From the IMG/VR virus record IMGVR_UViG_3300043252_000011, positions 34,429 to 98,428 of that record: DNA of 64,000 nt, one strand, 5' to 3'. The stretch comes from a virus. Lineage: Duplodnaviria > Caudoviricetes. The notes beneath the pieces were generated by a model. It had not been told where the DNA came from. It did no database searches and saw only the letters and a program-made list of their open reading frames with translations. Shown here piece by piece: positions 9,879 through 64,000 of the stretch. The translations under genes were made by a program, and so were the position numbers. Every line of letters starts with the position of its first letter. Positions within the stretch are counted from its first letter, which is position 1.

Positions 9879-10289
9879 TTAATACACCACTCGCTTGCCA
9901 GCTTCCGGCTTGAACGAAGCCACGGCAACGAACGACTTGCCTTCGTCACCCAGCTTTTCCATTTGTGCCGGCGACAGCAGCTCGCGTTTGAACGCCTTGT
10001 CGCCAAGCGTCTCTTGCGCAAGCACGGCGGTAGTCTCGGGGTCGCTCCAGCGGCGATGCACAACAGCGTCTTTGACGACAACGCCGGGAATCAGCTCGCC
10101 GTTGCCGATCGCACGCGCTTGAATTTGTGCATCGATGGCAGCTTGGAATGCACCGATTGCCTGTACGGCTTTCACCATCGGGACAAGGTTGGCGCTTTCG
10201 ATGGCGTCGGCATTGATAGCTTGCAATTTGGCAAGTACCGATTCGAGATCGGCGTAGACGGTGGCTAAGGCGGGGATGTTCGTATTCAT
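9879..10289 (-). CDS. Protein resembling the C-terminal part of DUF2800-type phage proteins
   Basis: GELIPGVVV..RRWSD..LLSPAQMEKLG motif; RBS ggag; upstream TTGACA promoter. Confidence 0.55.
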   Translation of the reverse strand: MNTNIPALATVYADLESVLAKLQAINADAIESANLVPMVKAVQAIGAFQAAIDAQIQARAIGNGELIPGVVVKDAVVHRRWSDPETTAVLAQETLGDKAFKRELLSPAQMEKLGDEGKSFVAVASFKPEAGKRVVY

Positions 10290-10339
10290 AGTCGCTCTCC
10301 AGCGGTTTGTCGATGTACGTACAATAACACCTTAAAAAC

Positions 10340-11849: not shown

Positions 11850-12081
11850 CAGAGCGCGGGAATGCGTGTACTTGTACGTACATCGAAAACGCAAACCGCT
11901 GGAGAGCGAAAATGATTACCCGAATCAAAACCGACGAAGAACTGGTACAGGAAGCCGCCCGCAAGTTGGCCATCGCTTGCAGCGGTGCCGAGTTTGATGC
12001 GGCGTGTGCTGACATGGTCGAAGCACTGCGTTATGCTCGTTCCGTGCAATGGTGGTCGCAGTTCGAGCGGGAGGTTGTGTG

Positions 12082-15910: not shown

Positions 15911-16861
15911 ATGGTAGCGTACTACAACGAAAAAGACCCGTTCGCAGCGGAATGGCTACGCAAATTAATTGCTGCGAACATCATCGCACCCGGCGACGTT
16001 GACGAAAGAAGCATTGAAGATGTTATTCCCATGGAACTCGCCAAGTACACACAATGCCATTTCTTCGCCGGCATCGGTGTCTGGTCTTACGCCATGCGCC
16101 GCGCCGGCTGGCCCGATGACCGCCACGGCTGGAGCGGTTCGTGCCCATGCCAGCCTTTCAGCCAGGCAGGCCAAGGCGCGGGGTTTGCTGACGAGCGGCA
16201 CCTATGGCCTGCGTTTTTCCATCTTATCGAGCAGTGCCGCCCTGACATCGTTTTTGGTGAGCAGGTTGCGAGCCCGGACGGATTTGCTTGGTTCGACCTT
16301 GTACAGTCTGACATGGAAGGTACGGACTACGCCTTCGGGGCGCTCGATCAATGCGCTGCGGGCTTCGGCGCGCCGCATATCAGACAGCGGCTATACTGGA
16401 TGGCCTACGACAACAGCGCGGGACTGGCCCAGCAACAGCGCAACGGAAGAATACCATTCGGAACGCTGGTCGCACTCCCGCGGGAAGGCGCTGAACGAAT
16501 TAACGGAGCAACTAGCGGGATGGAACAGCACGTCGGCGTCGGACGGGAATGGCGGCAAACGTCCGCACCCGGATACGACAATGACGGGGCGGCACCCGAA
16601 CGGCAACAAAATCAATATGGGGGTGTCATCGCAAGCACACCTAGCATTCTTGAACGTGCAGCCGGCCCGACTAACGGTTACTGGCGAGCTGCTGATTGGC
16701 TCCGATGCAAAGATGACAAGTGGCGGCCAGTTGAACCCAGCGCATTCCCGTTGGCTCATGGGGTTGCCAATTGAGTGGGACTTCTGCGGGGTTACGGTAA
16801 CGCTATCGTCGCGCCGCAAGCGCAAGAATTTGTGAAGGCAGCCATGCAGTACATGCCATGA
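15911..16861 (+). pseudogene. C5 cytosine methyltransferase (alpha frame) with in-frame TGA at 16772-16774
   Basis: FFAGIG, GSCPCQPFS, EQV and PHIRQR motifs; motif X RGYGNAIV lies in frame after the TGA. Confidence 0.75.
15969..16835 (+). CDS. Overlapping alternative-frame MTase beta subunit (M.EcoHK31I-like)
   Basis: LNPAHSRWLMGLP motif IX-like; same frame is conserved at 53986-54810. Confidence 0.55.
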   Translation: MLRTSSHPATLTKEALKMLFPWNSPSTHNAISSPASVSGLTPCAAPAGPMTATAGAVRAHASLSARQAKARGLLTSGTYGLRFSILSSSAALTSFLVSRLRARTDLLGSTLYSLTWKVRTTPSGRSINALRASARRISDSGYTGWPTTTARDWPSNSATEEYHSERWSHSRGKALNELTEQLAGWNSTSASDGNGGKRPHPDTTMTGRHPNGNKINMGVSSQAHLAFLNVQPARLTVTGELLIGSDAKMTSGGQLNPAHSRWLMGLPIEWDFCGVTVTLSSRRKRKNL

Positions 16862-17181
16862 GTGATATAGAGGTTTTTCCCTGGGACCCGCCACAACGAT
16901 CGGTGGAAGACACCATCGAATTGATACGAAACGACTTTGCGTACGCTGTTGCAAACACCGCGATTGTAGTACATTCCAACAATCCGGCGTTCGCCTTCAT
17001 CGCCAACACGCAGCGGGGCCAGCTCGTACCGCGCGGGGAGGTTAAACTGTCGGACGGAACGACGGTTGAATTGCAGGATATCGGGATGTGCCAGCCCAAC
17101 GTGCCTCACATGACCGTACAGCAGATCATGACGCGTATCTGGAAACTGGCGAGTGATTTGGGGTTGGAGATTGTGAAATGA
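16858..17181 (+). CDS. Hypothetical protein
   Basis: 107 aa, ATGA overlap. Confidence 0.5.
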   Translation: MSDIEVFPWDPPQRSVEDTIELIRNDFAYAVANTAIVVHSNNPAFAFIANTQRGQLVPRGEVKLSDGTTVELQDIGMCQPNVPHMTVQQIMTRIWKLASDLGLEIVK

Positions 17182-17648
17182 CAAAAGACGAAGTTATTAA
17201 TAAAATTGTCACTGATCTAGCGTGGCGCGGGCCGAGCGGACGACCGATGAATTTTGTTTGTCTAACACGTGAACAAGCGATAGTCCTAATAAAGCCAGAG
17301 CCAGAAAAAGAGACTTCTAAATGACCGCATACTGGCCAACGGCTGCCGTAATGCAGCATCTGGACGGCTACCAGCGAGTCGGACTGGTAAACGCTTCGCT
17401 CGGCACGTCGCAACTAATGATGGTTGCCTGCCATATAACGCGACCAGCAAGATATCCGCCTGCACGTCATTGGCAGTCATTCAATCGAAAGGCGCCGGAA
17501 TGCGTTGCGTTTACCTGAGCTACCCCGACTACGGCCAATGGACCGCCCTGGAGCGCGGCGGCTTTGTGGAAATGTGGGACGATTTCGGCTTTGTGATGGA
17601 CGCGCTGCATTGACAGCGTACGGTAGCAGGTGTACAGAATAACAACAA

Positions 17649-17775
17649 GAATGTCGCCAACTTAGAGGTATTCCGATGCACCGACCGAGCGAATTTTTAG
17701 CCTGGGCCGTCGAGACATTCGGTCCGGTTGCCCTCAAGCGCAAAGAACGCCTTATGCGCTTTACTGAGGAAGCAA
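17649..17775 (+). repeat. 127-bp direct repeat, copy 1
   Basis: Identical to 63874-64000. Confidence 0.95.
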
Positions 17776-18029
17776 TCGAACTCGCGCACGCGGACGGCCT
17801 TAAGCGGGCTGATTTGGATAGGCTTTTGGACCGCGTTTATTCGCGTCCTGCTGGCCATGTGTGGCGCGAAATCGGCCAAGCGCAGGCGTGCCTAGAAACC
17901 TACGCCCAAAGCATCGGCGTGTCTGCGGACGAACAGGCGCAGAAGGAATTTGATCGGGTGCGCAAAATCCCGAAAGAGGAATGGACGAAACGCCACGCGG
18001 CCAAGGTCGGCCTTGGTATCGCCGGCTGA
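17676..18029 (+). CDS. MazG-like NTP pyrophosphohydrolase-fold protein
   Basis: ERLMRFTEEAIEL...EIGQ pattern. Confidence 0.55.
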   Translation: MHRPSEFLAWAVETFGPVALKRKERLMRFTEEAIELAHADGLKRADLDRLLDRVYSRPAGHVWREIGQAQACLETYAQSIGVSADEQAQKEFDRVRKIPKEEWTKRHAAKVGLGIAG

Positions 18030-18053
18030 TACGGAATTAACACGGAGATTGAT

Positions 18054-18284
18054 GTGAAAAAGACGATCACGCCCGACGAGCGCCTCCAAGCCTTCGCACT
18101 CTTTGTAATGGCTTGCCAGCACGCTCAGGAATGCCGCCGATACGAGCGGGCCATCGCCAAGATTTTCGGCGACACCGACGAGTTCAATTCGCGGGTTAGC
18201 GATTCCATCTACGGGAGTGAGCCCAATGGGGCCTCTGTCGAGTTCGATGAAATCTTGGAAGGCAACGAGATCAAGGTGAAGTGA
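18054..18284 (+). CDS. Hypothetical protein
   Basis: 76 aa, RBS ggag. Confidence 0.55.
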   Translation: MKKTITPDERLQAFALFVMACQHAQECRRYERAIAKIFGDTDEFNSRVSDSIYGSEPNGASVEFDEILEGNEIKVK

Positions 18285-18700
18285 TGGCGCGCTTTGCTGC
18301 CCAAACTCGAGTTGGCGTCGATCAAACCCGTGTTGAGATCGAGCGCACGCTGGCGCGCTATGGTGCCACCGCGTTCGGCTACATCAGCAAGCAGGGCGTG
18401 GCCATCATTGGCTTTGAGGCGGCTAAGAGGCACATCAAAATTACTGTGCCGCTTCCAGTCGGCGAAGATGAAAAGACGAAGCAGCAAGCCCGGCAGCGCT
18501 GGCGCGCCCTACTCCTGGTCATCAAGGCCAAGCTCGAATCTGTCGAAAGCGGCATCGAGACTTTGGAGGAAGCATTCTACGCAAACATCGTCATGCCGGA
18601 CGGCCGCACGATCTATGAAAGCACGCGCGAGCATGTTGCGGTCGCTTACAAGACCGGCAAGGTGCAGGGACTTTTGCCGGATTACACGAAGTCCGGTTAA
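18281..18700 (+). CDS. Conserved hypothetical phage protein
   Basis: EIERTLARYGA...RWRALLLVIKAKLE...EEAF motif. Confidence 0.7.
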   Translation: MMARFAAQTRVGVDQTRVEIERTLARYGATAFGYISKQGVAIIGFEAAKRHIKITVPLPVGEDEKTKQQARQRWRALLLVIKAKLESVESGIETLEEAFYANIVMPDGRTIYESTREHVAVAYKTGKVQGLLPDYTKSG

Positions 18701-18722
18701 TGACAGAACACTCGCCAACTTC

Positions 18723-19625
18723 ATGACCCAGGCAGCGACCATAGAAGCTCCTACCCGCCCGGCACTCCGCTGGCACGGCGGTAAGTGGAAGCTCGCGCCG
18801 TGGATCATGTCGCATTTCCCGCCGCACCGGGTCTACGTTGAGCCGTTCGGTGGTGCTGCCTCCATCCTGCTCCGCAAGGAGCGCGTCTATGGGGAGGTTT
18901 ATAACGACCTGGACGACTGGGTTGTGAACCTATTCCGCGTCCTCCAAAACGAGGAACAGGCGGCACGCCTAGTCCGGCTGCTCGAGGTCACACCCTTCGC
19001 CCGGACTGAATTTGAAGTCGCGCGCAAGCTCGGCGAGGCGGAAGGCGACCCGGTTGAATTGGCCCGCCGGCTGATAATCCGATCCTACATGGGCTTTGGG
19101 TCCAATGCGCACGACGGCCGATCGACAGGCTTCCGGTCGAACAGCAACCGTAGCGGCACGTTGCCGGTGCAAGATTGGGCCAATTACCCCCAGGCGCTGC
19201 TTAAGATAGTCGAGCGGTTCCGAGGCGTGGTGATCGAACATCGTGACGCCACCGCCGTCATGGTGCAACACGATAGCCTCGAGACGCTGCATTACGTGGA
19301 TCCTCCATATCTCCCTGAGGTCCGATCGCCGGCAAATAAATACGGCCTGAAATACCGGATGTACCGGCACGAAATGGACGCTGCCGGCCACCTAACGCTG
19401 ATTGAGGCGCTGCACCAGCTCGAGGGAATGGTCATCCTATCCGGTTATCCCCCCCCTTTGTACGAATCCGCGCTGCCTGGCTGGCGACGATCAGAGACGG
19501 CCGCCCTAGCCGATGGCGCGCGGAAGCGCACGGAAGTTCTTTGGATCAATCCGGCCGCCGCCGAAGGCCTCGATCGCGTGCGGCGAGGTCATGAGTTTGG
19601 TTTGTTCGCAACAGTTGGCGGTTAA
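18723..19625 (+). CDS. dam: DNA adenine methyltransferase (D12 class)
   Basis: RWHGGKW, YVEPFGG, EVYND and DPPY motifs. Confidence 0.9.
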   Translation: MTQAATIEAPTRPALRWHGGKWKLAPWIMSHFPPHRVYVEPFGGAASILLRKERVYGEVYNDLDDWVVNLFRVLQNEEQAARLVRLLEVTPFARTEFEVARKLGEAEGDPVELARRLIIRSYMGFGSNAHDGRSTGFRSNSNRSGTLPVQDWANYPQALLKIVERFRGVVIEHRDATAVMVQHDSLETLHYVDPPYLPEVRSPANKYGLKYRMYRHEMDAAGHLTLIEALHQLEGMVILSGYPPPLYESALPGWRRSETAALADGARKRTEVLWINPAAAEGLDRVRRGHEFGLFATVGG

Positions 19626-19647
19626 CTTCTGCTTAACAGGGACACCG

Positions 19648-20732
19648 ATGGCTGAGCACTGGAAAGATAAGGACGGCGTGATCCACTGCGAAGGCGTCGA
19701 GTCCGGCGACTATCTGCTTTGTGGCCTAGCGCCGGAAGGCGAGAATGGCGACGATGAATTGCCGACAAAAACGCACGCTTCGATCAATTGTAGCAATTGC
19801 GTCGCCATCATTGCCTTTTGCCGCCGCATCCGACCGGGAGAATTTGTATCAACCGTGCGAGCACAGAGGTAACGGCAATGGCTATCGTCGAAGTTCACCT
19901 GGTCGAAGATCGCGCCAAAATCTATAGCAGCACGGGCGCTGTTTACGAGATTTGCGACGATCATTTTGACCAACCGACTGTCAAAGTCCTAGAAATGGGC
20001 GGCCGTGGTTATGAACGCTCGCAAACGCAAGTCGAGAGAGACGATCAGCTAAAACGCTATCGTCGGGCGCTTGAAAATATCATGTACTGTGAGGCGACCA
20101 TGTGCGCCGACTACGTTGAAGAAATGAAGGAACTTGCACGCAACGCCCTTATGAGGCCGCGATGACCCGCTCCCAACTCGAAATGGCCGCCCAGGCAATC
20201 GCCAAAGAACACGGCTGCGGCCTGGACGACAATGGCGGAATATGCCCGGCCGGCGACAAAGGCGAGCCATGTATGTGCGAGAGGTTCGCGCGGGTTGCGT
20301 TGCGAGCGGCAGAGGAATGCGCGCTTTGCGAAACACCGGAGACAACATGATCTTAAAAAACGGCTTCGATACAGGAAAGTCCTGTTGTTTTTGCGGTGCC
20401 GACATTACCAACTGTGAACGAGGCTATGCTGGAGAGCCGTGTTGTCGCGCTTGCGGCAAGGGCGGCAATGGCGAGCCTGACGAGGCTTACATGGCTTACA
20501 AGGGAAACCTACCAGCGCCGCTCTGGTTTTGGGGATGATAGCGATGGCACGAGACAAATTCGATATGGCGGCGAGTTTCATCGTCGAGGAACATATCCGT
20601 ATCTACGACAAGATGGTGCCGCATCCCGACGCGATTAAAGACGCCGTCGCGAAAGAATTGCGCCAAACATGGAACGAGGCCATTGACGCGGTGATCGCCA
20701 AGGCAAAGACAATCGCCGCCGTAATCGACTAA
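19648..20732 (+). CDS. Five small hypothetical genes (19648-19872, 19878-20165, 20162-20350, 20347-20538, 20544-20732)
   Basis: Tightly packed or overlapping ORFs with RBS, several Cys-rich. Confidence 0.5.
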
Positions 20733-20754
20733 CCCGTCCAATGTAGGGAGATTC

Positions 20755-21018
20755 ATGATGGCGGCGAAGGAAGATCATCTGCGCGACCGGCTTCTGCGGA
20801 TCGTGCTTGACGCGATCGAGCTGAAAGAGGTCTCCCGCGAGGAGGCGCTGGCCGCCTGCATGGGTACTGCAGCAACTGTCCTCGGCACCTATTCGGAAGA
20901 TCAGCGTGAGGCAGTTGCGCTGGCGCTTGATGGCGTCTTGCTCAAACACGCCAATGCGCGCGCTCGACAGCTCCGATCTGGGGAAGTCGACGCCGACATG
21001 GCGCGCGCTAATCAGTAG
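20755..21018 (+). CDS. Hypothetical protein
   Basis: 87 aa, RBS gggag. Confidence 0.55.
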   Translation: MMAAKEDHLRDRLLRIVLDAIELKEVSREEALAACMGTAATVLGTYSEDQREAVALALDGVLLKHANARARQLRSGEVDADMARANQ

Positions 21019-21019
21019 A

Positions 21020-21247
21020 ATGTCGCTCAAAACCCAACCACGCGAAGATGCCACGGGCCGATATGGCTTCGAGGGCGATTGGGGTCGCAAATGTCTCTGC
21101 GGTCACGAGCTTGGCGTTCACACCGCCGCAGCGCCGCACGAGTGCATGAACGCGGATCGGCACCACATGATGGGTGGTCCCTGGATGGACAAGACGATCA
21201 CGGCGACGACCTGCTACTGCACCAAATTCAGACCAGTAAAAAAGTAA
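21020..21247 (+). CDS. Cys/His-rich hypothetical protein
   Basis: CLCGH..H...C...CYC..F. Confidence 0.55.
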   Translation: MSLKTQPREDATGRYGFEGDWGRKCLCGHELGVHTAAAPHECMNADRHHMMGGPWMDKTITATTCYCTKFRPVKK

Positions 21248-21357
21248 CATCACATTAACTTGGAGAAATCCCGTGAAGATCATCATGCGAAACGCGCACG
21301 ATACACTTGCAGCCTTCCAGACCGCGCAGGGCATGGAGAAGGCCGGCTAACGATGAA

Positions 21358-21582
21358 ATGTCGGAAAATGGCTGGCAGCCAATTGAAACAGCGCCAAAAC
21401 ATCGGCACCATCATCTGATGATGTGGGGCAGCGGCATCGGATTCTATCGCTGCACGTTCATAGGCGTGTGGGTCGGTGATCGGTGGCAAGAGGCTTATGG
21501 TAATCGGGATGCTGATCCAACTCATTGGGCGCCAACACCAGAGCCACCGGATAACGCCGAGATAGTCGGGAAAAACCCATGA
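21358..21582 (+). CDS. DUF551-like phage protein
   Basis: WQPIETAPK...PTHWAPTPEPP. Confidence 0.75.
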   Translation: MSENGWQPIETAPKHRHHHLMMWGSGIGFYRCTFIGVWVGDRWQEAYGNRDADPTHWAPTPEPPDNAEIVGKNP

Positions 21583-21962
21583 CGCCGATCCAGAGAATCA
21601 AAGCCGAGCGCCAACGTCAGATCGATGTCGAGGGTTATGATGGAAAACATGATGATGCGCACGATAGCGGCGAACTGTTGCGAGCCGCTGTGCTATACTA
21701 TCAGCACACGATGTTGCAGCTACGGATGGAGCCACCATTAAAATTGCGCGGCGACGGCGCACCGATCGGTTGGCCCTGGGAGGCGGAATGGTGGAAGCCA
21801 AAAAACCACATGCAAAATTTGGAACGCGCTGGCGCCCTCTGCTTGGCTGAAAAAGACCGTCTGCTGCGCTGCCGCGGCGGCTGGGTTGAGCACGTCAATC
21901 AAAAACTTCGCCTAATTTGCGCGGCCATCAAACAACTAGATGAAGCAGCGAGTAATCCCTGA
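21579..21962 (+). CDS. Conserved hypothetical phage protein
   Basis: AERQRQI..EG..HDD..GEL..WPW..WWKP..L.RAGAL motif. Confidence 0.75.
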   Translation: MTPIQRIKAERQRQIDVEGYDGKHDDAHDSGELLRAAVLYYQHTMLQLRMEPPLKLRGDGAPIGWPWEAEWWKPKNHMQNLERAGALCLAEKDRLLRCRGGWVEHVNQKLRLICAAIKQLDEAASNP

Positions 21963-21977
21963 ACAGCAGGAAGAACT

Positions 21978-22271
21978 ATGGCCTATACGGCACAAGAGAT
22001 TATCGATCACCTTCGCTACTTTTGGCAAAAGGCCGAAGGTATCGACTACGGCCAAGAGCACGAGGTCATGAAAGCCGCCGCGGCCCAGATCGAATCCGAC
22101 GCGAAGGTGATCACGGCGTTGAGGGAGACGCTTGAGGGATACGCATGTTATGGATTGGAGAAGTGCCCAGTTCCAAAGCTCAATGACGGTTCGTGCATTC
22201 ACGCCGGTACGGGCCACTGCGGCGACGCGGCATTCCGCGCTATTGAGCAGACAGCGGGGGAAACAAATTAA
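21978..22271 (+). CDS. Hypothetical protein
   Basis: 97 aa, RBS. Confidence 0.55.
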   Translation: MAYTAQEIIDHLRYFWQKAEGIDYGQEHEVMKAAAAQIESDAKVITALRETLEGYACYGLEKCPVPKLNDGSCIHAGTGHCGDAAFRAIEQTAGETN

Positions 22272-22625
22272 ATTCAGCGGCACCAAAGACCTTGAAATCG
22301 AACTGATGCCCGATAGCTCGGTGAGATTGACGATGCGCTATGCGACATCCTACGAGGCCACAATCGCATATGACGAGATTACCACTGCGGCAAGGACGGG
22401 CAAGCTCAAGATGAACCTCGAGCTGGGCGAAGTCTTGGAAGAAGAAGGCCCACGAATATAAGCGATATGTCGGGAAACAATGGAGAAACAGAATGGGAAT
22501 TAACTTAATCGGCTTAGGCCGCGATGTCGCACCTAAGATAGACACGAAAGCACGGGAGCTAGCACGCCTTCGGGATGCTCTTGAAAAAATTGCCCACGTT
22601 ACGGGAGAAGATGATCCTGCTATAT

Positions 22626-23025
22626 CATGCTTATCCGGTTGCCACACACAAACGCTTGAGAGGTACTAGATGTTGATCGAACGCCGAGGCTTGTTGACCG
22701 GGATCGTCGCAACTCTTTGCGCGCCTTCAATTGTGCGCGCGGGATCATTGATGCGGATCGCTGGCGAGCGGTATCGAATTTGGGGGTTTTCGTGTCCTTT
22801 GCTGCCGCCAGCGGAGGCGGCCTACAACAATCCGGCTTTATGGGACAAATATCTCGGGCCAACTCGCCGCCTTCAATTCGGAACATGGACGTTTTTCGGC
22901 AAAACCGGGAACGTCTATACCGACGACGTGATTGACTTTGCGAAGCAGGAATATCCGGATGCGCTCCCGTGGCCTGCGCATCAGGCACAAGATGTAGGGC
23001 TGTGTGTCTAAACCGGATAAGCATG
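22626..23025 (+). mobile_element. Non-autonomous TIR cassette 1 (IS1595/ISSod11-like ends), 400 bp
   Basis: TIR catgcttatccggtt; 8-bp TSD tgctatat (22618-25 and 23026-33). Confidence 0.88.
22670..23011 (+). CDS. Cassette 1 cargo with twin-arginine-like N-terminus
   Basis: MLIERRGLLTGIVATLCAPSIVRA; start and stop lie in the element ends. Confidence 0.65.
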   Translation: MLIERRGLLTGIVATLCAPSIVRAGSLMRIAGERYRIWGFSCPLLPPAEAAYNNPALWDKYLGPTRRLQFGTWTFFGKTGNVYTDDVIDFAKQEYPDALPWPAHQAQDVGLCV

Positions 23026-23093
23026 TGCTATATTATGGCCGTGGGCTCAAAAGATTGCGCTGGAAGCACTCGACTAACAAGAGATATGTCGAA

Positions 23094-23901
23094 ATGGGCG
23101 ATCATCGCTTTGAATTAAAGGCTGAATTTTCCATGCACGGGCATGAGAAGAAAATAAATTGGAATCTAAATTGGAGCGATAGTATCCCCGAGCGCTTGGC
23201 GGAATGGGTTGAACAACAGTATCAAGAAGCCATGAATTTCTGGTACGAAGCCGAATGGACCGCCGAAGATCATCGTAACGCCGAAATAGAGAGAACCGAA
23301 CGGGCAGAGTTGGATCGCCTTAAAGCCAAATACGAACCGCCACACTAAACAAGAGTTAGCATGGTCATGAGCCAATATCTTTCGCTTTACGATGCCCAGA
23401 CTGAAATCCTGCAGTGGCTTGAATCGAAAGGCCACGCGGTTGATTATGGTTCTGGCAAACCTCTCGATGATTGGCGGGTATGGCAGATGTGCAAAAGAAA
23501 GCGGCGGTTTCAGATGCGTCCAGAGGAAGATGAGCGTCGCCGCGTGTACGCCTGTCCGCATTGCGAGGGCTGGCATTTTACCCGGCGCCGATAGTAGACA
23601 AGTTAACACGCAGGAGCTTGGAATGAGCAATACTGACGGACAGCGCGATATCACCTTGGCGATGGAAGCAGAACTCGCGACAGTGTCTAAGACCACCGTG
23701 GCAGCAGCAGCCAAAGCGGCGGAAGATCAAGACATCGCCTATGTGATGACGCAGCAGATCAACTGCATCATCGATGCCAATGTGCGGCTTCGCGGCTCGC
23801 ACCGCCTCGTCGGCGCCGATGTCCAGGCGTGGGTCAACATGGTGGATTATCTGACGCGGGAAAAGGAAGGACTTACCGCAAAGCGCCAGCGGCAGAACTA
23901 A
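23094..23901 (+). CDS. Three small hypothetical genes (23094-23348, 23361-23594, 23623-23901)
   Basis: ORFs separated by palindromic sites; the middle one has YACPHCEGWH. Confidence 0.55.
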
Positions 23902-24502
23902 TCAGCTTTCTTATCAAGCCGCGCCTCGATCTCGCCAGTTGTCGGTCGGGTCTGTTCAAGCGTCTTAACCCGATCTTCGAGCCGGGTTGTCTCCCGCTGG
24001 TAATCACCTTTCAACTCATTCAATCGTTCTTTGGTGTTTTTGGCAAATTCCTCATGCTCGCGGATCGACAGACTCTTGCCGAGCATTTGGGAGGCAAGAG
24101 TGATTGCAGAGAGGATGACCGCGCCAAGTGCAATGTAGGTGGGGTCCATCAGCCATGCGGCAATTCAATCCGCCTCAACCGCTGCTCGTGGTCTTTCGTA
24201 ATGTCTTTCAGGTCGGAATCAATCTGTGTCTCGGTCTTGATATGATCGTCGAGCTTGGTCGTCAGCACATTCAAATTGGTTATGGCCTGTTGCTGGGCAT
24301 CGTTGATCTTGCTGATGGCGGTCCACTGCAATTGAATGCCGGTTTCGGATTTGGTTTTAACATCGACAAGCGTGCCCCAGGCCAAATAGATCGCGGCCGT
24401 GCCGGCGGCGCCGATGAGCGTGATGAGGATTCGGAATACCCAAGCGGTTGCCCGTTCCTTGGTCTCGACGAATTCCTGTAGCGTCATGCCGATCCTGCTC
24501 AT
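23898..24502 (-). CDS. Two TM/coiled-coil lysis-region proteins (23898-24149, 24149-24502)
   Basis: N-terminal TM plus coiled coil, downstream of endolysin. Confidence 0.55.
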
Positions 24503-24568
24503 TTCGCGCCCGCCAATACTAACGTCTTCGAAGTTTCGTGCTACTCATCCACAAGTCCCGGTACGAAA

Positions 24569-24599
24569 GTATGGGGCCGCATTGGCGCGCGCCCCATAC
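24569..24599 (-). terminator. Hairpin terminator after the porin-like gene
   Basis: gtatgggg...ccccatac stem followed by TTT on the minus strand. Confidence 0.45.
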
Positions 24600-24626
24600 C
24601 GACTGACTGACGCTACTCCCTCGACG

Positions 24627-25424
24627 TTACAGGCCGAATTCGTAACTCAACCGCGTCCAATACTGCGTGCCGAGGTTGGCGCCCGCACTGAGTGTGAGCG
24701 GAGCGCCGTTTGTCGCGAAGGCGTTACCCATGGTGAAACCCTTGACCGGGAATGCAACGCCGGCAGAAGCATCGATCGCGCCGCCGTTCGGCTTGCCATC
24801 GGTGCCGAGCGTAGGCCAAATGAAGCCGCCAGTAATCATCGGGTAAGCGCCAACGGTCGTGCCGTTCGCGTTACCGAAGCTGCCACTGATTCCGGCTTCT
24901 TTGAGGCCAACGCCGACGTATTGCCGTGGTGCTCCGACAGGAACGGTCGGGGGAATCGGCGTGAAGGTCGGAAAGTTCGTCACCGGCAACGTCGGGAGGG
25001 CCGCATAAATCTTTTGCAGCCATTCAAAGCCGATGTCGAATTCCTGCGTCGCGGCCCATCGACTTGCGATTGCTGCGCTGGCTGCGCTTGTCGTGGCAGT
25101 TGCCTGCACCGTATTGGTGCCAGTGATATTCGACCATTCGCCGGTCAATTTGCCTCTGCACCATCCGATAGCGCAGTGGCCGACATAACCGACTTCGCCG
25201 CCGACCGCGCCACCCGTCGCCGTGAGATTGCCGCTTGCGAGACTCGTGGCAAAGACATTGGTGCCGCTGACACTCGACTGCGCGACATCAGCCTCGGTGA
25301 GGATACCGACAAACCAGCTGGAACCGGCCGCGGTAGCTGCCGGTGCCTTCAATGGCAAGTCTGCCGCCAGAGCCGGTACTGCCAGCGCGGTAAGCGCCAT
25401 GGTAAGCAGTAGCAATTTGCGCAT
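24627..25424 (-). CDS. Outer-membrane porin-like (Omp25/RopB-type) moron
   Basis: Signal peptide, ADLPLKAP start, C-terminal TRLSYEFGL. Confidence 0.65.
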   Translation of the reverse strand: MRKLLLLTMALTALAVPALAADLPLKAPAATAAGSSWFVGILTEADVAQSSVSGTNVFATSLASGNLTATGGAVGGEVGYVGHCAIGWCRGKLTGEWSNITGTNTVQATATTSAASAAIASRWAATQEFDIGFEWLQKIYAALPTLPVTNFPTFTPIPPTVPVGAPRQYVGVGLKEAGISGSFGNANGTTVGAYPMITGGFIWPTLGTDGKPNGGAIDASAGVAFPVKGFTMGNAFATNGAPLTLSAGANLGTQYWTRLSYEFGL

Positions 25425-51339: not shown

Positions 51340-52011
51340 ATGAAAATCTCCACAGCGGTACCGTATATCAGAGTTAGCACTCAAAAGCAGGGCCGCTCCG
51401 GCCTCGGGCTCGAAGCCCAGCGCGAGCAGCTCGCCCGGTTTGCCGCGGCCGAGAACATCATCCTCACCGCGGAATACCTCGAAGTCGAGACCGGCAAGGG
51501 CTCAAACGCCATCGACAAACGCCCGCAACTCAGGGCCGCCATCGCCGAGGCCAAGCGGCTCAATTGCCCGGTCGCAGTCGCCAAGCTCGATCGCTTGAGC
51601 CGCGACGTCCATTTCGTCTCCGGCCTCATGGTCCACAAAATCCCCTTCCTGGTCGCCGACCTCGGCGCCGATGTCGACCCGTTCGTCCTTCACCTGTACG
51701 CCGCCTTGGCCGAAAAAGAGCGCGCGCTGGTCTCGCAGCGCACCAAGGCCGCGCTCGCCGCCGCCAAGGCCCGCGGCACCACAAAGGACGGCCGGCCCCT
51801 CATCCTCGGCAATCCCGAACAGGCCGCAAAAAACCGCGCCAACGCCATGCTACGCGCCAAACTGTTGTTCGACCAGATGGACGCACTCAAAAACCTCTCG
51901 GCCAACCAAGCCGCCAAAAACCTCAATCTCGCCAACGTGCCAACCCCGACCGGGCGGCCGTGGTCGGCCAAAACCGTGATCCGCGTGCGAAACCGGCTGG
52001 CGGCGGCATGA
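51340..52011 (+). CDS. Serine recombinase (resolvase family)
   Basis: [35 protein letters not shown]. Confidence 0.9.
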
Positions 52012-52931: not shown

Positions 52932-53861
52932 ATGTCCAAGTCCACCATTTCGACGTTTGAACTGTTCGCCCTGATCCCCGATGCGGAGACGGCGCGGACC
53001 TATTTGGAGGCCCGCCTGTGGCCGAACGGGGCAACCTGCCCGGTCTGCGGCCTTGGCGAGCGGGTGACGGTTCGGAAGGGCAAGCCCGGCTTCTACCACT
53101 GCCAACAGTGCGCAGAGGACTTTACGGTGCGCACCGGCACGATATTCGAGCGCAGCCATGTCCCGCTGCACAAGTGGGTTTACGCGATGTACCTGCTCGT
53201 AACGGCCCGCAAGGGCATATCCAGCCTGCAACTCGCCAAGGAAATCGGCGTCACCCAAAAGTCGGCTTGGTTCATGTTGCAGCGGCTCCGCGAAGCCTGC
53301 GGAAAAGACCTGACTATGCTTCAAGGGCTGGTCGAGGTTGATGAAACCTACGTGGGCGGCTTGGAGGCCAACAAGCACGAAGCCGACAAACTGCGCATGG
53401 GGCGCGGCCCGGTCGGCAAGCAGCCCGTTTTGGGCTTGCGGGAAAAGGGCAAAGGTGGTCGCGTCAAGGCGTTCAAGATCGACAGTACCGACGCGGGCAC
53501 GATCACCGATGTCATCGTTCAAAACGTGGCGGTCGGATCGACCCTGCACACTGACGAAGCCCAAGCCTACGGCGAGATCGGCGGCCTGTTCTTCGATCAT
53601 GCGACGGTCAACCACTCGGCTGGCGAATACGTCAAGGACGGCGTTTCGACCAATTCGATTGAGTCCGTTTTCGCGGTTTTGAAGCGCGGCCTGATCGGCG
53701 TCTACCATCACGCCAGCCCCAAGCATATCGGCCGCTACGTTGACGAATTTGCGTTCCGGTTGAACGAGGGCAACGTGGCCCGGCACACCCTGGAACGGCT
53801 GGACTCGTTCGTCAGTCGCGTTGCGGGCAAGCGGCTCACCTATAAGGCGCTGATCGCATGA
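52932..53861 (+). CDS. tnp: IS1595-family (ISXO2-like) DDE transposase
   Basis: CPVC Zn ribbon, VEVDETYVGG, LHTDE, TNSIES, YVDEFAFRLN. Confidence 0.95.
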   Translation: MSKSTISTFELFALIPDAETARTYLEARLWPNGATCPVCGLGERVTVRKGKPGFYHCQQCAEDFTVRTGTIFERSHVPLHKWVYAMYLLVTARKGISSLQLAKEIGVTQKSAWFMLQRLREACGKDLTMLQGLVEVDETYVGGLEANKHEADKLRMGRGPVGKQPVLGLREKGKGGRVKAFKIDSTDAGTITDVIVQNVAVGSTLHTDEAQAYGEIGGLFFDHATVNHSAGEYVKDGVSTNSIESVFAVLKRGLIGVYHHASPKHIGRYVDEFAFRLNEGNVARHTLERLDSFVSRVAGKRLTYKALIA

Positions 53862-57182: not shown

Positions 57183-57572
57183 CATGCTTATCCGGTTTAG
57201 ACACACAGCCCTACATCTTGTGGTTATGTTTCGACGTTTGCACGCGGTTCATTAAATAATCTGCATGGATCATCTGGCCATTCCATGCGATCATGTAGGT
57301 TGCCGTGGCGGAAAGACTCATAGTCTTCCTCGCCAGAGCCTATAGAGCGGCGCAACATTTCCGTACATCGCAGGCAAACCACGGTCTTGAGATTACGAGT
57401 TATGGCCAGATGACCACACGCTAGCTCTACGATGCGTCGGGTCTGGTCTTTGCCGAGACGATCCCGATTAAAGCCAGTCGCTATAATGTCGGTTCGCACA
57501 ATTCGTTCGGGTGGTGTTTGGATCAACATCTAGTAGGTCTCAGCGTTTGTGTGTGGCAACCGGATAAGCATG
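57183..57572 (-). mobile_element. Non-autonomous TIR cassette 2 (ISSod11-like ends), 390 bp
   Basis: Same ends as cassette 1, inverted; TSD taatgttt (57175-82 and 57573-80). Confidence 0.88.
57224..57529 (-). CDS. Cassette 2 cargo, hypothetical (LACGH..CLRC)
   Basis: 101-aa ORF filling the element. Confidence 0.65.
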   Translation of the reverse strand: MLIQTPPERIVRTDIIATGFNRDRLGKDQTRRIVELACGHLAITRNLKTVVCLRCTEMLRRSIGSGEEDYESFRHGNLHDRMEWPDDPCRLFNEPRANVET

Positions 57573-59608: not shown

Positions 59609-60478
59609 ATGAACGTGCCAGCCATCAAAACCGCAACCGCGGTTGCCTCCCACCCATTCAGTGCCGACCAGATCGACCTTATCAAGCGCACCATCTGTAA
59701 AGGCTCGACCGACGACGAACTCCGGCTATTCCTATATCAGGCCGGCCGCACCGGGCTCGATCCGCTCGCTCGACAAATCTATTCGATCGAGCGGCGTGAA
59801 TACCGCGACGGCCAATGGGTCAAGGCGCGATCAATACAGACATCGATCGATGGTTTCCGCCTGATCGCCGAACGCAGTGGCAAGTACGCCGGCCAGGTCG
59901 GCCCGTATTGGTGCGGCGCCGACGGCCAATGGCAAGACGTATGGATCGCGCCGGAATCGCCGATCGCCGCCCGGGTTGGGGTGCTGCGCACCGATTTCAA
60001 GGAACCATGCTGGGGCGTGGCGCGCTTCGATGCCTACGCGCAAAAGACCAAGGACGGCGTTCCGACGCGCATGTGGAAAACCATGGGCGACGTTATGGTG
60101 GCGAAGTGCGCCGAAGCACTGGCGCTGCGCAAGGCATTTCCGCAAGAACTATCCGGTCTCTACACCGGCGATGAAATGATGCAGGCGGTCGAGGATTTCA
60201 CACCGCCAGCGCCGAAGAAAACAATCGCCGAAGATTTGAACGATGAAATTCCGTTCGGTGGCGACACGCCGAAGGCCGCTCCTGCTCAAAGCCCCCCCAG
60301 CCCTCAGGCAGGAGCGGCCAGTGCGCCCGTCGATGTGCTGGCGATGGCGCGTGAGGCCGCAAGCCACGGCTTCGATATGCTGAACACCTACTACAAAACG
60401 CTCGGCAAGAAGGATCAGAAAATTCTCAACGAGCATAAAGTTGAACTCGAAGCGCTGTTTCCGATCGATGCGGAATAG
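59609..60478 (+). CDS. bet: Phage recombination protein Bet/RecT
   Basis: GLDPLARQIY, IQTSIDGFRLIA, KCAEALALRKAFP. Confidence 0.9.
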   Translation: MNVPAIKTATAVASHPFSADQIDLIKRTICKGSTDDELRLFLYQAGRTGLDPLARQIYSIERREYRDGQWVKARSIQTSIDGFRLIAERSGKYAGQVGPYWCGADGQWQDVWIAPESPIAARVGVLRTDFKEPCWGVARFDAYAQKTKDGVPTRMWKTMGDVMVAKCAEALALRKAFPQELSGLYTGDEMMQAVEDFTPPAPKKTIAEDLNDEIPFGGDTPKAAPAQSPPSPQAGAASAPVDVLAMAREAASHGFDMLNTYYKTLGKKDQKILNEHKVELEALFPIDAE

Positions 60479-60506
60479 CCGCTCACGACAGGTTAGTGGG
60501 AAAACC

Positions 60507-61244
60507 ATGGCAGAAATATCGGGAATTTCTTGGACAGACGCTACGTTCAATCCGTGGATTGGATGCACGCGCGTAAGCCCCGCGTGTGATCGTTGCTATG
60601 CGGCCCGTGACAATGAACGCTGGAATTGGGTGCCCGGCTGGGGCGCAGGCGTCGCTAGGCGCCGCACGTCGGTCCAGAACTGGAACAAGGTGCTCAAATG
60701 GAATCGCGAAGCAGCGGCTTCGGGAAGGCCGCTACGGGTGTTCTGTGCGTCGCTCGCCGACGTGTTTGATAACGAGATCGAGCAGGCGTGGCGCAACGAC
60801 CTGTGGGACTTGCTTCGCGCTACGCCAAATCTGCGGTGGATACTTCTGACCAAGCGGATAGGCAACGCGCCGAAGATGCTACCCGCGTTCTGGCCCATGG
60901 CGCACGTCGGCTTGATGTCCACCCTCGAAAATCAAGAGGTATGGGACCGGGATTATCACAAGCTCGAAGCCGTGCCGGCGGCTTGGCATGGGGTGTCCGC
61001 CGAACCGTTGCTCAGCCATATCGATATCGGCGACGCTAAGCCGGATTGGATCATCACGGGCGGTGAAAGCGGCCCCGGCTTCCGGCCCCTCGATATGGAT
61101 GCCGTGCGCTCGCTTCGCGATCAATGCCGACGCAACGGCATCACTTTCCACCACAAGCAAAACGGCGGTATTCGCGGGAAGGATGCCGGCTGTTTGGTCG
61201 ATGGTGTCGAGCATAAATATTTTCCGCCAGCGTTGGCGGCTTAG
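60507..61244 (+). CDS. Phage Gp37/Gp68 (DUF5131) family protein
   Basis: ISWTDATFNPWIGCTRVSPACDRCYA, LLTKR, SAEPLL, GGESG. Confidence 0.9.
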   Translation: MAEISGISWTDATFNPWIGCTRVSPACDRCYAARDNERWNWVPGWGAGVARRRTSVQNWNKVLKWNREAAASGRPLRVFCASLADVFDNEIEQAWRNDLWDLLRATPNLRWILLTKRIGNAPKMLPAFWPMAHVGLMSTLENQEVWDRDYHKLEAVPAAWHGVSAEPLLSHIDIGDAKPDWIITGGESGPGFRPLDMDAVRSLRDQCRRNGITFHHKQNGGIRGKDAGCLVDGVEHKYFPPALAA

Positions 61245-61289
61245 GCACTATCAACAAGTATGTCGCCAACTTAGAGGTAGGAGAACACC

Positions 61290-61712
61290 GTGAACAAGCG
61301 CAGACTTCTGAGGTTGGCCGATCTGCTCGACGCAGACGCCAAGAACGAGGCGGGTGTCAAATTTAATCTGAGCGGGTGGGGTAGTTCGTCTACAGGCGCC
61401 CCGGCTAATGTTTCCTGCGGCACCACGGCATGTGCGATGGGGCTGGCGGTACTAAGTGGCGCGTTCGAACAAGACGGCCTCAGAAACGGATTTGGGCCGC
61501 GCTCATGCTCGGTCATTCCTTATTTTCAAACAGGGCAGAAAGTTGTGTCAGGCTTCAAGGCCGCGGCGAATCTGTTTGGCATTAGCCACAAGGCAGCCGA
61601 ATGGCTCTTTCAAGATGACCACTACCGCAAAAGCCAATGGACTGGTGCCGCAGGCGAACGCGCCGTGGCCCGCCGTATTCGCAAGTTCGTTGCTGGCGAA
61701 GCGCGACCGTAA
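61290..61712 (+). CDS. Conserved hypothetical phage protein
   Basis: RLLRLADLL...CGTTACAMG...VARRIRKF. Confidence 0.7.
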   Translation: MNKRRLLRLADLLDADAKNEAGVKFNLSGWGSSSTGAPANVSCGTTACAMGLAVLSGAFEQDGLRNGFGPRSCSVIPYFQTGQKVVSGFKAAANLFGISHKAAEWLFQDDHYRKSQWTGAAGERAVARRIRKFVAGEARP

Positions 61713-61731
61713 GACGGCGGCTGATACGGAA

Positions 61732-62175
61732 CATGCTTATCCGGTTGCCACACACAAACGCTGAGACCTACTAGATGTTGAAAACCCTCGTTTGGCCTGA
61801 GAAAAGCTATCAGTCGCTCGACCAAGGCATCCGATTTGCAGTGCGCGTTCTTCACGCGGCCGGGTTTGAAACCTGCCAGTCATGCCAGGGCGGTAAAGGG
61901 CACGCCTACAGCGACCCTACGGTTGATCTGAGAGCGGAAGCTGACGACGCCCGTGGTTTTGGAGCGCTCGCGGCGCTGCGAACCTACGGGCTTCCCATCG
62001 CGGAGGTAGCCATCGTTTGGCCTGTGCGGAACGGCTGCCCCTACGAGAAACTTTGGCGCATCACATTCAGCAAAACAATGGAAGATCGCGCCGATGAGAA
62101 GCCGAGTTTTGTTTTCGGGTATGCCGCAACATGACCGCAAGATATGGGGCTGTGTGTCTAAACCGGATAAGCATG
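61732..62175 (+). mobile_element. Non-autonomous TIR cassette 3 (ISSod11-like ends), 444 bp, no TSD
   Basis: Same ends as cassettes 1 and 2; flanks atacggaa and gttagcag differ. Confidence 0.85.
61775..62134 (+). CDS. Cassette 3 cargo, hypothetical (LDQGI..ETCQSCQGG)
   Basis: 119-aa ORF filling the element. Confidence 0.65.
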   Translation: MLKTLVWPEKSYQSLDQGIRFAVRVLHAAGFETCQSCQGGKGHAYSDPTVDLRAEADDARGFGALAALRTYGLPIAEVAIVWPVRNGCPYEKLWRITFSKTMEDRADEKPSFVFGYAAT

Positions 62176-62193
62176 GTTAGCAGGGAGATTAAA

Positions 62194-62898
62194 ATGGGTT
62201 GCGATATTCACCTTTACGTCGAGCATCGAAATGGCCAAGGTTGGGAAAGCTGCGACGTATGGGAGAAAAGCGAATACGAGCCGCACGAATTGACTGTGCC
62301 ATACGGCAAGCATTTTTATAGCGACCGCTCCTATGATACCTTTGCAATCTTGGCAGATGTGCGCAACGGCTATGGCTTTGCGGGGACCGATACCGGAGAC
62401 GGTTTTGTTCCGATTGCCGAGCCTCGCGGCTTACCCGACGATATGTCCCCACAACTCGCGGCAGAAGCCGCCGCGTTTTTGGAGCACACCCCATCGTGGC
62501 TAACAGCCAAAGAATTGATGGAGTATGACTGGACTCGCACCACAACAAAACGCGGATGGATCAGCGGCCCGCAATACGCCCATTGGATCAGATACCAGCG
62601 CGAGGATGGCGATGGGCCGAGAGAATGGTGCGGCGGAATCGGCGGCGGCGGTATTGAGCATATCGCGGAAGCGGAAATGGCGGAGCGCGTTGCCGCCGTT
62701 CAAGAACTGTTCAAGGGAGCAAACTACAAAGACTTGGAGCAGGCGTTGAAGGATCGGCTTGGCTCGACGTACTGCCAAGTATCCTGGCAAATTCCTTACT
62801 ATCGAGCGGCGTCCGGTTTTCTTAGCCGCGTCATGCCTCGCTTGTGGCGCTTGGGAAAGCCGGACGATGTGCGGATTGTCTTTTGGTTCGACAGCTAG
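62194..62898 (+). CDS. Conserved hypothetical phage protein (MGCDIH family)
   Basis: MGCDIH...RSY..F..LADVRN...PRGLP...RIVFWFD. Confidence 0.75.
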   Translation: MGCDIHLYVEHRNGQGWESCDVWEKSEYEPHELTVPYGKHFYSDRSYDTFAILADVRNGYGFAGTDTGDGFVPIAEPRGLPDDMSPQLAAEAAAFLEHTPSWLTAKELMEYDWTRTTTKRGWISGPQYAHWIRYQREDGDGPREWCGGIGGGGIEHIAEAEMAERVAAVQELFKGANYKDLEQALKDRLGSTYCQVSWQIPYYRAASGFLSRVMPRLWRLGKPDDVRIVFWFDS

Positions 62899-62926
62899 AG
62901 CCGACTTACACGGGGTTAGCGCCTAG

Positions 62927-63847
62927 ATGACCGAAAAGTGGACCAAGGGAGAATGGATTGGCGGCCTCGCCAGATGGGAGGTCGATCGCACGGTCTATTA
63001 CTCGATCGCGTTCACCTGGAAGCTTGATGAGGCGTTCGCGATGGCTCTTTTCGACAAGGCGCTGGGTAAGCGGGTAGTCGCTGGCGGTCCCGCGCTATTC
63101 CTAGCGAAGATGGCCCACGAAATTTCAACGGTGGCCGAGGTCGGTGGCAAGTTCGGGTACCCCGACGCGGTATCTCGGCACAATCCAATGGCGACCGAAT
63201 TTAGCTTTGGGTGCGACGTGGGCTGCGCCCATTGCATCGTGCCGGCGATGCACGGCCGGGTCTTTACGCTGGTCCCTGACGCTCCGGTGCGGCCGATCTT
63301 GTGCGACAACAACCTGTCTGCTTTGCCGACCGAGTTTCAGGACCATATCCTTGCCCGCTACCAGCGGGAGGAAGTTCCGATCCTTGATGCTAATTCGGGA
63401 TTTGAGCCGCGCACTTTCACTGAGGAAGTCTACCGCCGATGGAAGCCAACCCTAGACGCCTCCTATGCCCCGTGGCGGTTCGGCTACGACGATATGGTGG
63501 ATCAGCCTTATGTCAGGACCGTGTTCAAAATGCTTCGCAACGAGCCGACCAAGCGCAAGCGTGTCTATGTGATGATTGGGAACGAGCCCTATGCCGAATG
63601 CATGGAACGCATCTACGAGGTCATCGGCAACGGCTGCGAGCCGCATGTGCAGCCGGAAATCAAGTTGGTGTCTTGGGAGCGCAAGCCTTGGGTACGGCAC
63701 GATTGGACACGCCAGAAGCTAATCGACGTGGCCCGCTGGGCGAATGGCTGGGTCTATCGCAAGGTGCCGAACTTCGAGGACTACGACCGCAGCAACTCGA
63801 AGCGGCGATCGGAAAAGTACAACGCCCAAGAGGGTATGTTCGTGTAG
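62927..63847 (+). CDS. Radical SAM-like protein
   Basis: CDVGCAHC (CxxxCxxC), CDNN, VYVMIG. Confidence 0.7.
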   Translation: MTEKWTKGEWIGGLARWEVDRTVYYSIAFTWKLDEAFAMALFDKALGKRVVAGGPALFLAKMAHEISTVAEVGGKFGYPDAVSRHNPMATEFSFGCDVGCAHCIVPAMHGRVFTLVPDAPVRPILCDNNLSALPTEFQDHILARYQREEVPILDANSGFEPRTFTEEVYRRWKPTLDASYAPWRFGYDDMVDQPYVRTVFKMLRNEPTKRKRVYVMIGNEPYAECMERIYEVIGNGCEPHVQPEIKLVSWERKPWVRHDWTRQKLIDVARWANGWVYRKVPNFEDYDRSNSKRRSEKYNAQEGMFV

Positions 63848-63873
63848 CCCAAACAAATAGGCACTTACAGGAC

Positions 63874-64000
63874 GAATGTCGCCAACTTAGAGGTATTCCG
63901 ATGCACCGACCGAGCGAATTTTTAGCCTGGGCCGTCGAGACATTCGGTCCGGTTGCCCTCAAGCGCAAAGAACGCCTTATGCGCTTTACTGAGGAAGCAA
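63874..64000 (+). repeat. 127-bp direct repeat, copy 2
   Basis: Identical to 17649-17775, running to the end of the window. Confidence 0.95.

Follow-up and report, generated by a model that had tools for sequence, protein, structure and literature searches.

Position-specific 21-bp junction sites in fixed order punctuate the accessory-gene array of a Caudoviricetes phage

Known systems of gene exchange at short sites

The subject of this study is an array of small accessory genes in a virus of the Duplodnaviria (Caudoviricetes), together with the 21-bp sequences, here called junction sites, that punctuate it. The stretch of DNA that was analysed, hereafter the window, has 64,000 nucleotides and corresponds to bases 34429-98428 of the 98,428-bp viral record IMGVR_UViG_3300043252_000011, which has a terminal repeat of 127 bp. 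The record appears to hold two phages, named A and B below, that meet at a repeat named R, and the array is assigned to phage B.

The nearest described system is that of the PeSL cassettes of T4-type phages. These are units of a promoter and a terminator stem-loop; a genome holds many almost identical copies, among which recombination takes place, and mini-circles arise from them (Arbiol et al. 2010, PMC2839356; Comeau et al. 2014, PMC4122927). As in those phages, short conserved intergenic motifs here punctuate small accessory genes, and the breakpoints of replacements and indels between related phages lie at the motifs. However, the sites of this array have no promoter, no terminator, and no hairpin, and a given type is represented by a single site in an array, always at the same position and with an invariant centre of its own.

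A second comparison concerns the simple core sites of tyrosine recombinases (lambda COC', XerCD/dif, Cre/lox, attI), in which inverted arms surround a spacer of 6-8 bp and the spacers of the two partners have to be identical. Engineered cassette exchange exploits this property by using heterospecific lox or FRT spacers that do not cross-react. The 7-7-7 layout of the junction sites and their invariant, type-specific centres match this plan: the putative sites have both the inverted binding arms around a spacer of the proper length and the identity of spacers between partners. The differences are that the arms are only 7 bp long and degenerate, and that the enzyme is a candidate. The putative resemblance to XerCD/dif, in which arms of 11 bp for XerC and XerD, of the host's dif consensus, surround a centre of 6-8 bp, is limited to the inner CATA/TATG bases. 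We know of no described counterpart to a fixed series of some 24 naturally occurring heterospecific sites, and literature searches for a series of ordered heterospecific sites in a phage found none.

Integrons also come to mind, as they share with this locus an array of promoterless small genes between elements that look like recombination sites, stop codons in the left arms and, in some of the arrays, a gene for a tyrosine recombinase. Here, however, the sites have 21 bp and no attC hairpin, in contrast to the imperfect palindrome of 55-140 bp, folding on a single strand, that defines attC; they do not travel with the genes, and their order is fixed rather than free. In place of IntI next to attI, the head of the operon holds RecT and DUF5131, and the recombinase gene, where present, lies inside the array and is co-oriented with it.

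Two classes of phage sequences complete the picture. Stoperators of cluster A mycobacteriophages and the inverted repeats of phiC31 are near-identical copies of one operator, bound by the phage's own repressor. They resemble the junction sites in being many and short, in lying in small intergenic gaps, and in being co-oriented with transcription; they differ in that the invariant part of the junction sites changes at every position and no common repressor exists, so that a single repeated operator with a cognate repressor in every carrier was not found. As for lambdoid phages, their modular theory places linker, or boundary, sequences between modules, and Rad52-like recombinases carry out relaxed homologous recombination (De Paepe et al. 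2014, PMC3945230). The likeness is in-register exchange, at short shared sequences, of modules that are equivalent in function, along with the presence of RecT/Red-beta-type proteins in temperate phages. The junction sites differ by their defined dyad anatomy and invariant 7-bp centre, and by the fact that the slots are filled with unrelated genes instead of diverged alleles.

Anatomy and reality of the sites

Each site consists of a left arm (consensus CGRCTWA), a type-specific centre of 7 nt, and a right arm (consensus TWAGYMG). The upstream gene often has its stop codon within the left arm, and the right arm passes into a ribosome-binding site of the GGAG type. A sequence-only reading of the window had listed 13 strings of this arm-spacer-arm form; all of them are present letter for letter, all belong to the series described below and follow its order, and the run does continue, as had been proposed, in 61245-63881. 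Only the spacers of 6 or 8 nt written for the sites at 21344, 22453, and 23588 needed correction: a shift by one base gives 7 nt, so that the 7-7-7 layout holds.

Are such sites real, or did they arise by chance, or as a by-product wherever stop codons and ribosome-binding sites follow each other? The second idea is not without basis, because a stop codon often lies in the left arm and some right arms continue into a GGAG motif. The question was addressed with a position weight matrix (PWM) of the arms, trained on 54 sites of five further phage contigs (10 + 10 arm positions per site), with the centre ignored and this window excluded. In a scan of both strands of the whole 98.3-kb record, the sites of the window rank at the top, with 11 of the 13 listed sites above the 99.9th percentile of the record (7.06), and the structural operon is free of them, as the sequence-only reading had noted. 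A score of at least 10 is reached at 8 of 17 co-oriented array boundaries and at none of the 22 boundaries of the structural operon (Mann-Whitney p = 4e-5). When only positions with a stop triplet in the left arm are compared, 6 of 261 in the array and 4 of 4901 elsewhere score at least 14 (p = 3e-6), and the array contains 10 hits of at least 12 versus 0.38 in shuffles. Moreover, the left arms of related phages often have no stop codon and nevertheless keep the consensus, and the same sites recur in 34 contigs. Chance and by-product, whose probability we put close to nil, are refuted by these controls and by the recurrence. The right-arm word WATGTCG was also considered as a start codon followed by a Ser codon; this holds only at 21020 and 21358, and elsewhere the word opens mini-frames of 1-13 codons.

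The inverted arrangement of the arms around the 7-nt spacer was likewise borne out. The profile of the left arm resembles that of the right arm in reverse complement, with a correlation of r = 0.72 (column permutation p < 1e-4), compared with 0.19 for a reverse-only control and -0.02 +/- 0.21 for column permutations. What kind of symmetry is this? Arms of the same site pair at 3.54 of 8 positions, and arms of different sites at 3.60. Because the arms of one site pair no better than those of different types, the comparison points to a dyad symmetry that would reside in the consensus, as it does for protein half-sites, and not in a fold. A hairpin of RNA or DNA was ruled out, given that within-site complementarity is absent.

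It is at the centre that the sites acquire their identity. A centre-blind scan of 428 kb, made with the arms only, returned 379 sites with 24 recurrent centres, and in the 34 contigs the centres found by the arms alone agreed with their type exactly in 233 cases and with one mismatch in 5. The centres differ between types and are invariant within a type, in agreement with the heterologous spacers of the sequence-only reading. Among 535 pairs of same-type sites from different contigs, identity is 0.4-0.5 in the left arm and 0.6-0.75 in the right arm, and it reaches the random level (0.26) beyond -14 and +28; overall, the arms of same-type sites are only 50-65% identical.

Inverted arms could be the half-sites of a dimeric regulator, of phage or host origin, in an early accessory operon, in which case gene exchange would be a by-product of an array of operators. 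A dyad consensus without hairpin constraint fits this idea, and so does the distribution of the sites, which are confined to the early rightward operon and co-oriented with transcription, with none in the structural operon. However, the arms are degenerate, and the invariant centre differs at every position, so that a common regulator could not read it; in addition, no regulator is common to the contigs, and no promoter or terminator signal is enriched. We regard operators as an improbable explanation. Sigma-70 promoters and intrinsic terminators in 17000-24500 are at or below the shuffle expectation, and readings of single sites as sigma-54 promoters, ECF promoters, or IHF sites were dropped by eye, as they fail across types. 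The same fate befell CtrA, which the sequence-only reading had named as an alternative: the sole perfect TTAA-N7-TTAAC box of the record (19622-19638) is not kept in other phages, the orthologous junctions in three related contigs (G002, G003, and G005) being without both half-sites.

Fixed order and probable exchange of genes

Related arrays were gathered with an 18-nt word of the 17636/61245 site, with two further junction words, and with the recombinase gene of one array. The 18-nt word occurs in five other viral contigs (G001-G005), whose early arrays have the set of junction sequences of phage B in the same order; in these five, the 43-bp block that holds the word is 95-98% identical and stands before four unrelated genes. 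In all, the series was found in at least 34 viral contigs from more than 20 metagenomes, with 288 instances of 15 named types. Within these 34 contigs, 2,665 pairs of types agree with a common order and 19 depart from it.

While the order is kept, the genes are not. Neither 90-nt flank is homologous in 2,663 of 2,708 same-type pairs (98%), and the first genes of the same slot are homologous in only 7 of 363 pairs. A slot between two sites holds 1-5 genes. For example, the 15 inspected instances of type 11 each precede a gene with a different N-terminus, and the type 3 centre is followed in relatives by four different right arms and downstream genes.

Where do the replacements begin and end? 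The few pairs with one shared flank are informative. If only the upstream flank is shared (15 pairs), identity is 0.78 in the left arm and 0.56 in the right arm; if only the downstream flank is shared (10 pairs), it is 0.52 in the left arm and 0.92 in the right arm, with baselines of 0.50 and 0.60, respectively. This switch of linkage from one arm to the other indicates that each arm moves along with the gene that it adjoins, upstream for the left arm and downstream for the right, and that exchange would separate the two arms. The breakpoints of gene replacement thus fall inside the sites, in support of the sequence-only reading.

A further clue comes from the closest relative, contig L010, which shares with phage B the terminase, the portal, and the two-gene unit 18054-18700, at 87% nucleotide identity. 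In L010 the unit lies outside the array, on the opposite strand and without sites, which argues that the sites belong to the scaffold of the array and not to the genes.

These data bear on the proposal of the sequence-only reading, namely, integron-like mobile cassettes in which each unit of 1-5 genes has its own site and is excised or inserted as a circle. There are observations that such cassettes would explain: in some relatives (G004, L112, L113, L125, and L139) an extra gene has the same type of site on either side, and repeat R seems to have passed from one phage to another together with portions of the two sites that flank it. The proposal is nevertheless contradicted by the fixed order in the 34 contigs, by the 18054-18700 unit that is free of sites outside the array of L010, and by the absence of an attC-like fold, and the window is without an integrase or an attI-type arrangement. 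By sequence comparison it is largely refuted by the fixed order, and we give it very little credence.

In sum, about 24 junction sites of 21 bp, each specific to its position, make up the conserved scaffold of the array. The comparisons strongly suggest that related phages replace the contents of the slots in register, with the recombination breakpoints inside the site. Replacement of this kind would keep the order of the sites while the genes turn over.

How are the slots exchanged?

Does an enzyme read the sites? Or are they short stretches of shared sequence at which ordinary recombination takes place? The reading that we weakly favour, at a probability of roughly 0.4, is one of site-specific exchange. 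Here the inverted arms would serve as binding sites for a tyrosine recombinase that has no arm-binding domain, and this enzyme would exchange strands across the 7-bp centre. The centres would have to match between partners; where they differ, deletions inside a genome would be blocked, and exchange from one genome to another would have to proceed in register. The enzyme would come from outside, because this phage encodes no tyrosine recombinase: it could be supplied by a co-infecting or resident relative (10 of the 34 related arrays contain a lambda-Int-like gene, always at the same place) or by the host. By analogy with known core sites, inverted degenerate arms, an invariant 7-bp centre, and centres specific to each position would be what a tyrosine-recombinase system needs, and simple homology does not predict them. 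In its most explicit form, which we put forward with more reserve, the array would be a natural case of recombinase-mediated cassette exchange, with about 24 heterospecific core sites that have a common arm consensus and a different 7-bp overlap at every ordinal position and that are spread along the early accessory operon of a widespread group of phages, in which a simple tyrosine recombinase (lambda-Int-like or host Xer) recombines like-numbered sites only.

The candidate enzyme deserves some detail. The sequence-only reading had seen no tyrosine recombinase in the window, and indeed the 98-kb record has no match to PF00589. The array of G002, on the other hand, contains a 332-aa gene between site types 6 and 7, which is present at full length at the same place in 10 contigs, while 15 more retain only its first or last codons. 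By itself, the G002 protein matches Pfam below threshold, and PDB sequence and profile searches with it found no integrase. The family to which it belongs comprises 1,108 representatives; of 55 homologues, 39 gave a match to PF00589, and the residues R147, K199, R276, H299, and Y308 are invariant. An AF2 structure model (pLDDT 95), built from a deeper alignment of the homologues, has its best match in residues 75-356 of lambda Int on a core site (TM 0.79), followed by XerA, IntI, Tn1549 integrase, and Cre. Since the model matches this portion of lambda Int, the protein is predicted to be a tyrosine recombinase without an arm-binding domain.

The 3' end of this gene has a history of its own. 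Its last 57-74 nt are 100% identical in four otherwise dissimilar contigs and are kept where the gene is lost. The segment was seen in L104 (G002) and also concerns G001, G003, G004, L116, L119, and L121; in several contigs a second copy follows an extra gene, so that the segment acts as a junction without the dyad layout.

A number of points speak against a site-specific enzyme. The hybrid site at 63861, the sole out-of-order join in phage B, unites two different centres via a shared right arm. In three near-identical pairs, identity extends to about +13, i.e., over the centre and six bases of the right arm, and does not stop at the edge of the centre; in the other direction, it begins at the first base of the centre. 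These limits make the shared block, as judged from the alignments, the centre plus half of the right arm. In relatives, genes that were replaced or inserted are also bordered by conserved islands without the dyad layout, among them the recombinase gene's 3' end. The arms, for their part, are short and degenerate. A protein family common to all the array-bearing contigs was looked for and none was found, and no tyrosine recombinase above threshold was detected in this record, G001, G003, or G004. Finally, the recombinase may simply be the integrase of lysogeny, because it is placed like lambda int, after the recombination genes and before the accessory genes.

Homologous exchange at linkers accommodates several of these observations. 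According to this explanation, ordinary intercistronic signals (stop, spacer, and ribosome-binding site) shared by the phage pool provide short homologies for annealing proteins, here RecT, and no site-specific enzyme is involved; recombination would homogenise the junction sequences and swap the genes between them. Rad52-like phage recombinases are in fact known to drive mosaic formation at short, diverged homologies (De Paepe et al. 2014, PMC3945230). The RecT gene stands at the head of the array, and a Gam-like/Gp157-like gene heads those of G001 and G002; several site types share blocks of 20-45 nt; the breakpoints at about +13 and the origin of the 63861 hybrid through a shared right arm are as expected; and the islands without dyad layout behave alike. 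What linkers leave unexplained is the dyad consensus of the arms and the contrast between a near-invariant 7-bp centre and arms that are far less conserved. Furthermore, the identity shared by most same-type pairs amounts to just 7-13 bases, little for an exchange that relies on annealing. We consider linker-mediated exchange a tenable possibility, only slightly less likely than the site-specific one.

The sites and their surroundings in this phage

The junction sites of phage B are collected in Table 1, along with the gene at the head of the array and repeat R.

Table 1. Features of the array, listed from the RecT gene at its head through repeat R to the end of the series
Feature	Positions	Strand	PWM score	Remarks
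RecT single-strand annealing protein gene	59609..60478	+		Pfam PF03837, E = 1e-30; head of array
Site type 1, centre cgacagg	60479..60499	+	13.7	Directly 3' of RecT stop; type heads series in 17 other contigs; absent from sequence-only list
Site type 2, centre caacaag	61245..61265	+	17.9	Followed by conserved ~30-nt leader with ribosome-binding site
Site type 3, left arm and centre tacggaa	61718..61731	+		Right arm 62177-62183 split off by TIR element 61732-62175
Site type 8, centre cacgggg	62902..62922	+	14.6	Type in 21 contigs
Hybrid site	63861..63881	+		Type 9 left arm and centre (caggacg) joined to type 2 right arm and leader; repeat R starts
Repeat R	17649..18042	+		394 bp, 117-aa gene inside; from right arm of one site to right arm of next
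Site type 2, centre caacaag	17636..17656	+	16.0	Phage A / repeat R junction
Site type 3, centre tacggaa	18023..18043	+	14.5	
Site type 4, centre tgacaga	18694..18714	+	8.3	Before D12 Dam methyltransferase gene 18723-19625
Site type 5, centre cttctgc	19619..19639	+	17.0	Arms happen to make perfect CtrA-type box
Site type 11, centre cccgtcc	20726..20746	+	17.6	Type in 25 contigs
Site type 12, centre tcagtag	21005..21025	+	11.6	Stop codon from centre, start codon from right arm
Site type 13, centre catcaca	21241..21261	+	3.3	Weak arms, weakest listed site; centre and series position conserved
Site type 15, centre cgatgaa (relatives: cgatgac)	21344..21364	+	10.3	DUF551 gene start codon in right arm
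Site type 16, centre cgccgag	21548..21568	+	17.4	Type in 13 contigs; absent from sequence-only list
Site type 17, centre tccctga	21949..21969	+	16.8	
Site type 18, centre tgagcag	22237..22257	+		Absent from sequence-only list
Site type 19, centre taagcga	22452..22472	+	10.2	
Site type 22, centre caagaga	23071..23091	+	11.8	Left arm holds stop codon of gene 22493..23077
Site type 23, centre acaagag	23342..23362	+	8.2	Same type and series place in at least 4 contigs
Site type 24, centre agacaag	23589..23609	+	10.3	End of series

As for the record itself, the density of GTAC is 6.4-6.7 per kb from the record start to window position 17635 and 1.2-1.4 per kb in 18043-63873. Tetranucleotide usage of the array (18043-23900) correlates with that of the second part at r = 0.84-0.90, versus 0.71-0.75 with the first. 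Since both measures differ, the record most likely consists of two phages joined at R, namely, phage A of about 52 kb and phage B of about 46 kb, to which the array would belong. By the same reasoning, the array of phage B appears to run from 60479-63881, across R, into 17676-23901, as the sequence-only reading had assumed. Repeat R has a second copy at the record start, at 100% identity, and contains no GTAC, that is, its composition is B-like; the GTAC-rich sequence of phage A extends to about 17639, at the junction with R. Phage A thus seems to have acquired the single, B-like slot R plus parts of both flanking sites. Phage A also has features of its own: a repeated upstream block in which a -35/-10-like pair occurs together with a palindrome that contains GTAC and with a fixed ribosome-binding site (9879-10330 on the minus strand, 11866-11912 on the plus strand, and beyond the window), and a recurrent 10-nt word, TGTCATACAA, before many genes, of which one copy lies in phage B near 51100.

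The genes of the array are small and mostly without family assignment. The gene 18723-19625 encodes a D12 Dam methyltransferase (Pfam PF02086), and 21358-21582 has a weak match to DUF551. In INPHARED phages, matches were limited to the methyltransferase gene and a short piece of a 138-aa gene; a prophage and host search of genome contigs gave two chance coding hits and nothing else, and no Rfam family was found in 16000-25000. Two slots contain frames that are worth recording. Between the sites at 21241 and 21344 there is a 25-codon frame (21274-21351) with a good ribosome-binding site. In 22251-22461, the site at 22237-22257 is followed by a ribosome-binding site and then by ATT (22267), which is ATG in relatives, with the frame open to 22461; the ATT is either a start codon or a lost one. 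Two of the related arrays contain or adjoin a gene whose product, about 350 aa long, has a winged-helix DNA-binding domain of the OmpR/PhoB type (L098 7246-8307, G004; L104 5805-6863, G002).

Mobile elements are present as well. Three elements of about 400 bp with terminal inverted repeats (TIRs) of 25-31 bp and one small gene each lie at 22626-23025, 57183-57572 (minus strand), and 61732-62175. An 8-bp target duplication (22618-22625 and 23026-23033) flanks the first of them, which splits the gene 22493..23077. The last is inserted between the centre and the right arm of a type 3 junction site, whose intact form is found in G005 and at 18023. All three are probably mobilised by an IS1595-family transposase, the gene of which (52932-53861) adjoins that of a 223-aa serine recombinase (51340-52011; resolvase domain and start of the recombinase domain). 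Similar serine recombinases of about 240 aa are present in G001 and G002.

Significance

The exchange of phage modules at short linkers is an idea that is decades old and for which there are few clean examples; the array described here provides one with a sharply defined anatomy. If a recombinase reads the sites, they would constitute a new kind of gene-shuffling system, a natural analogue of cassette exchange with heterospecific lox or FRT sites. Co-infecting phages and prophages would then be able to reassort accessory genes, probably directed against host defences, in register and without scrambling or deleting the array. Under either mechanism, the series of sites offers a practical marker for hypervariable accessory arrays, likely devoted to counter-defence, in uncultured phages.

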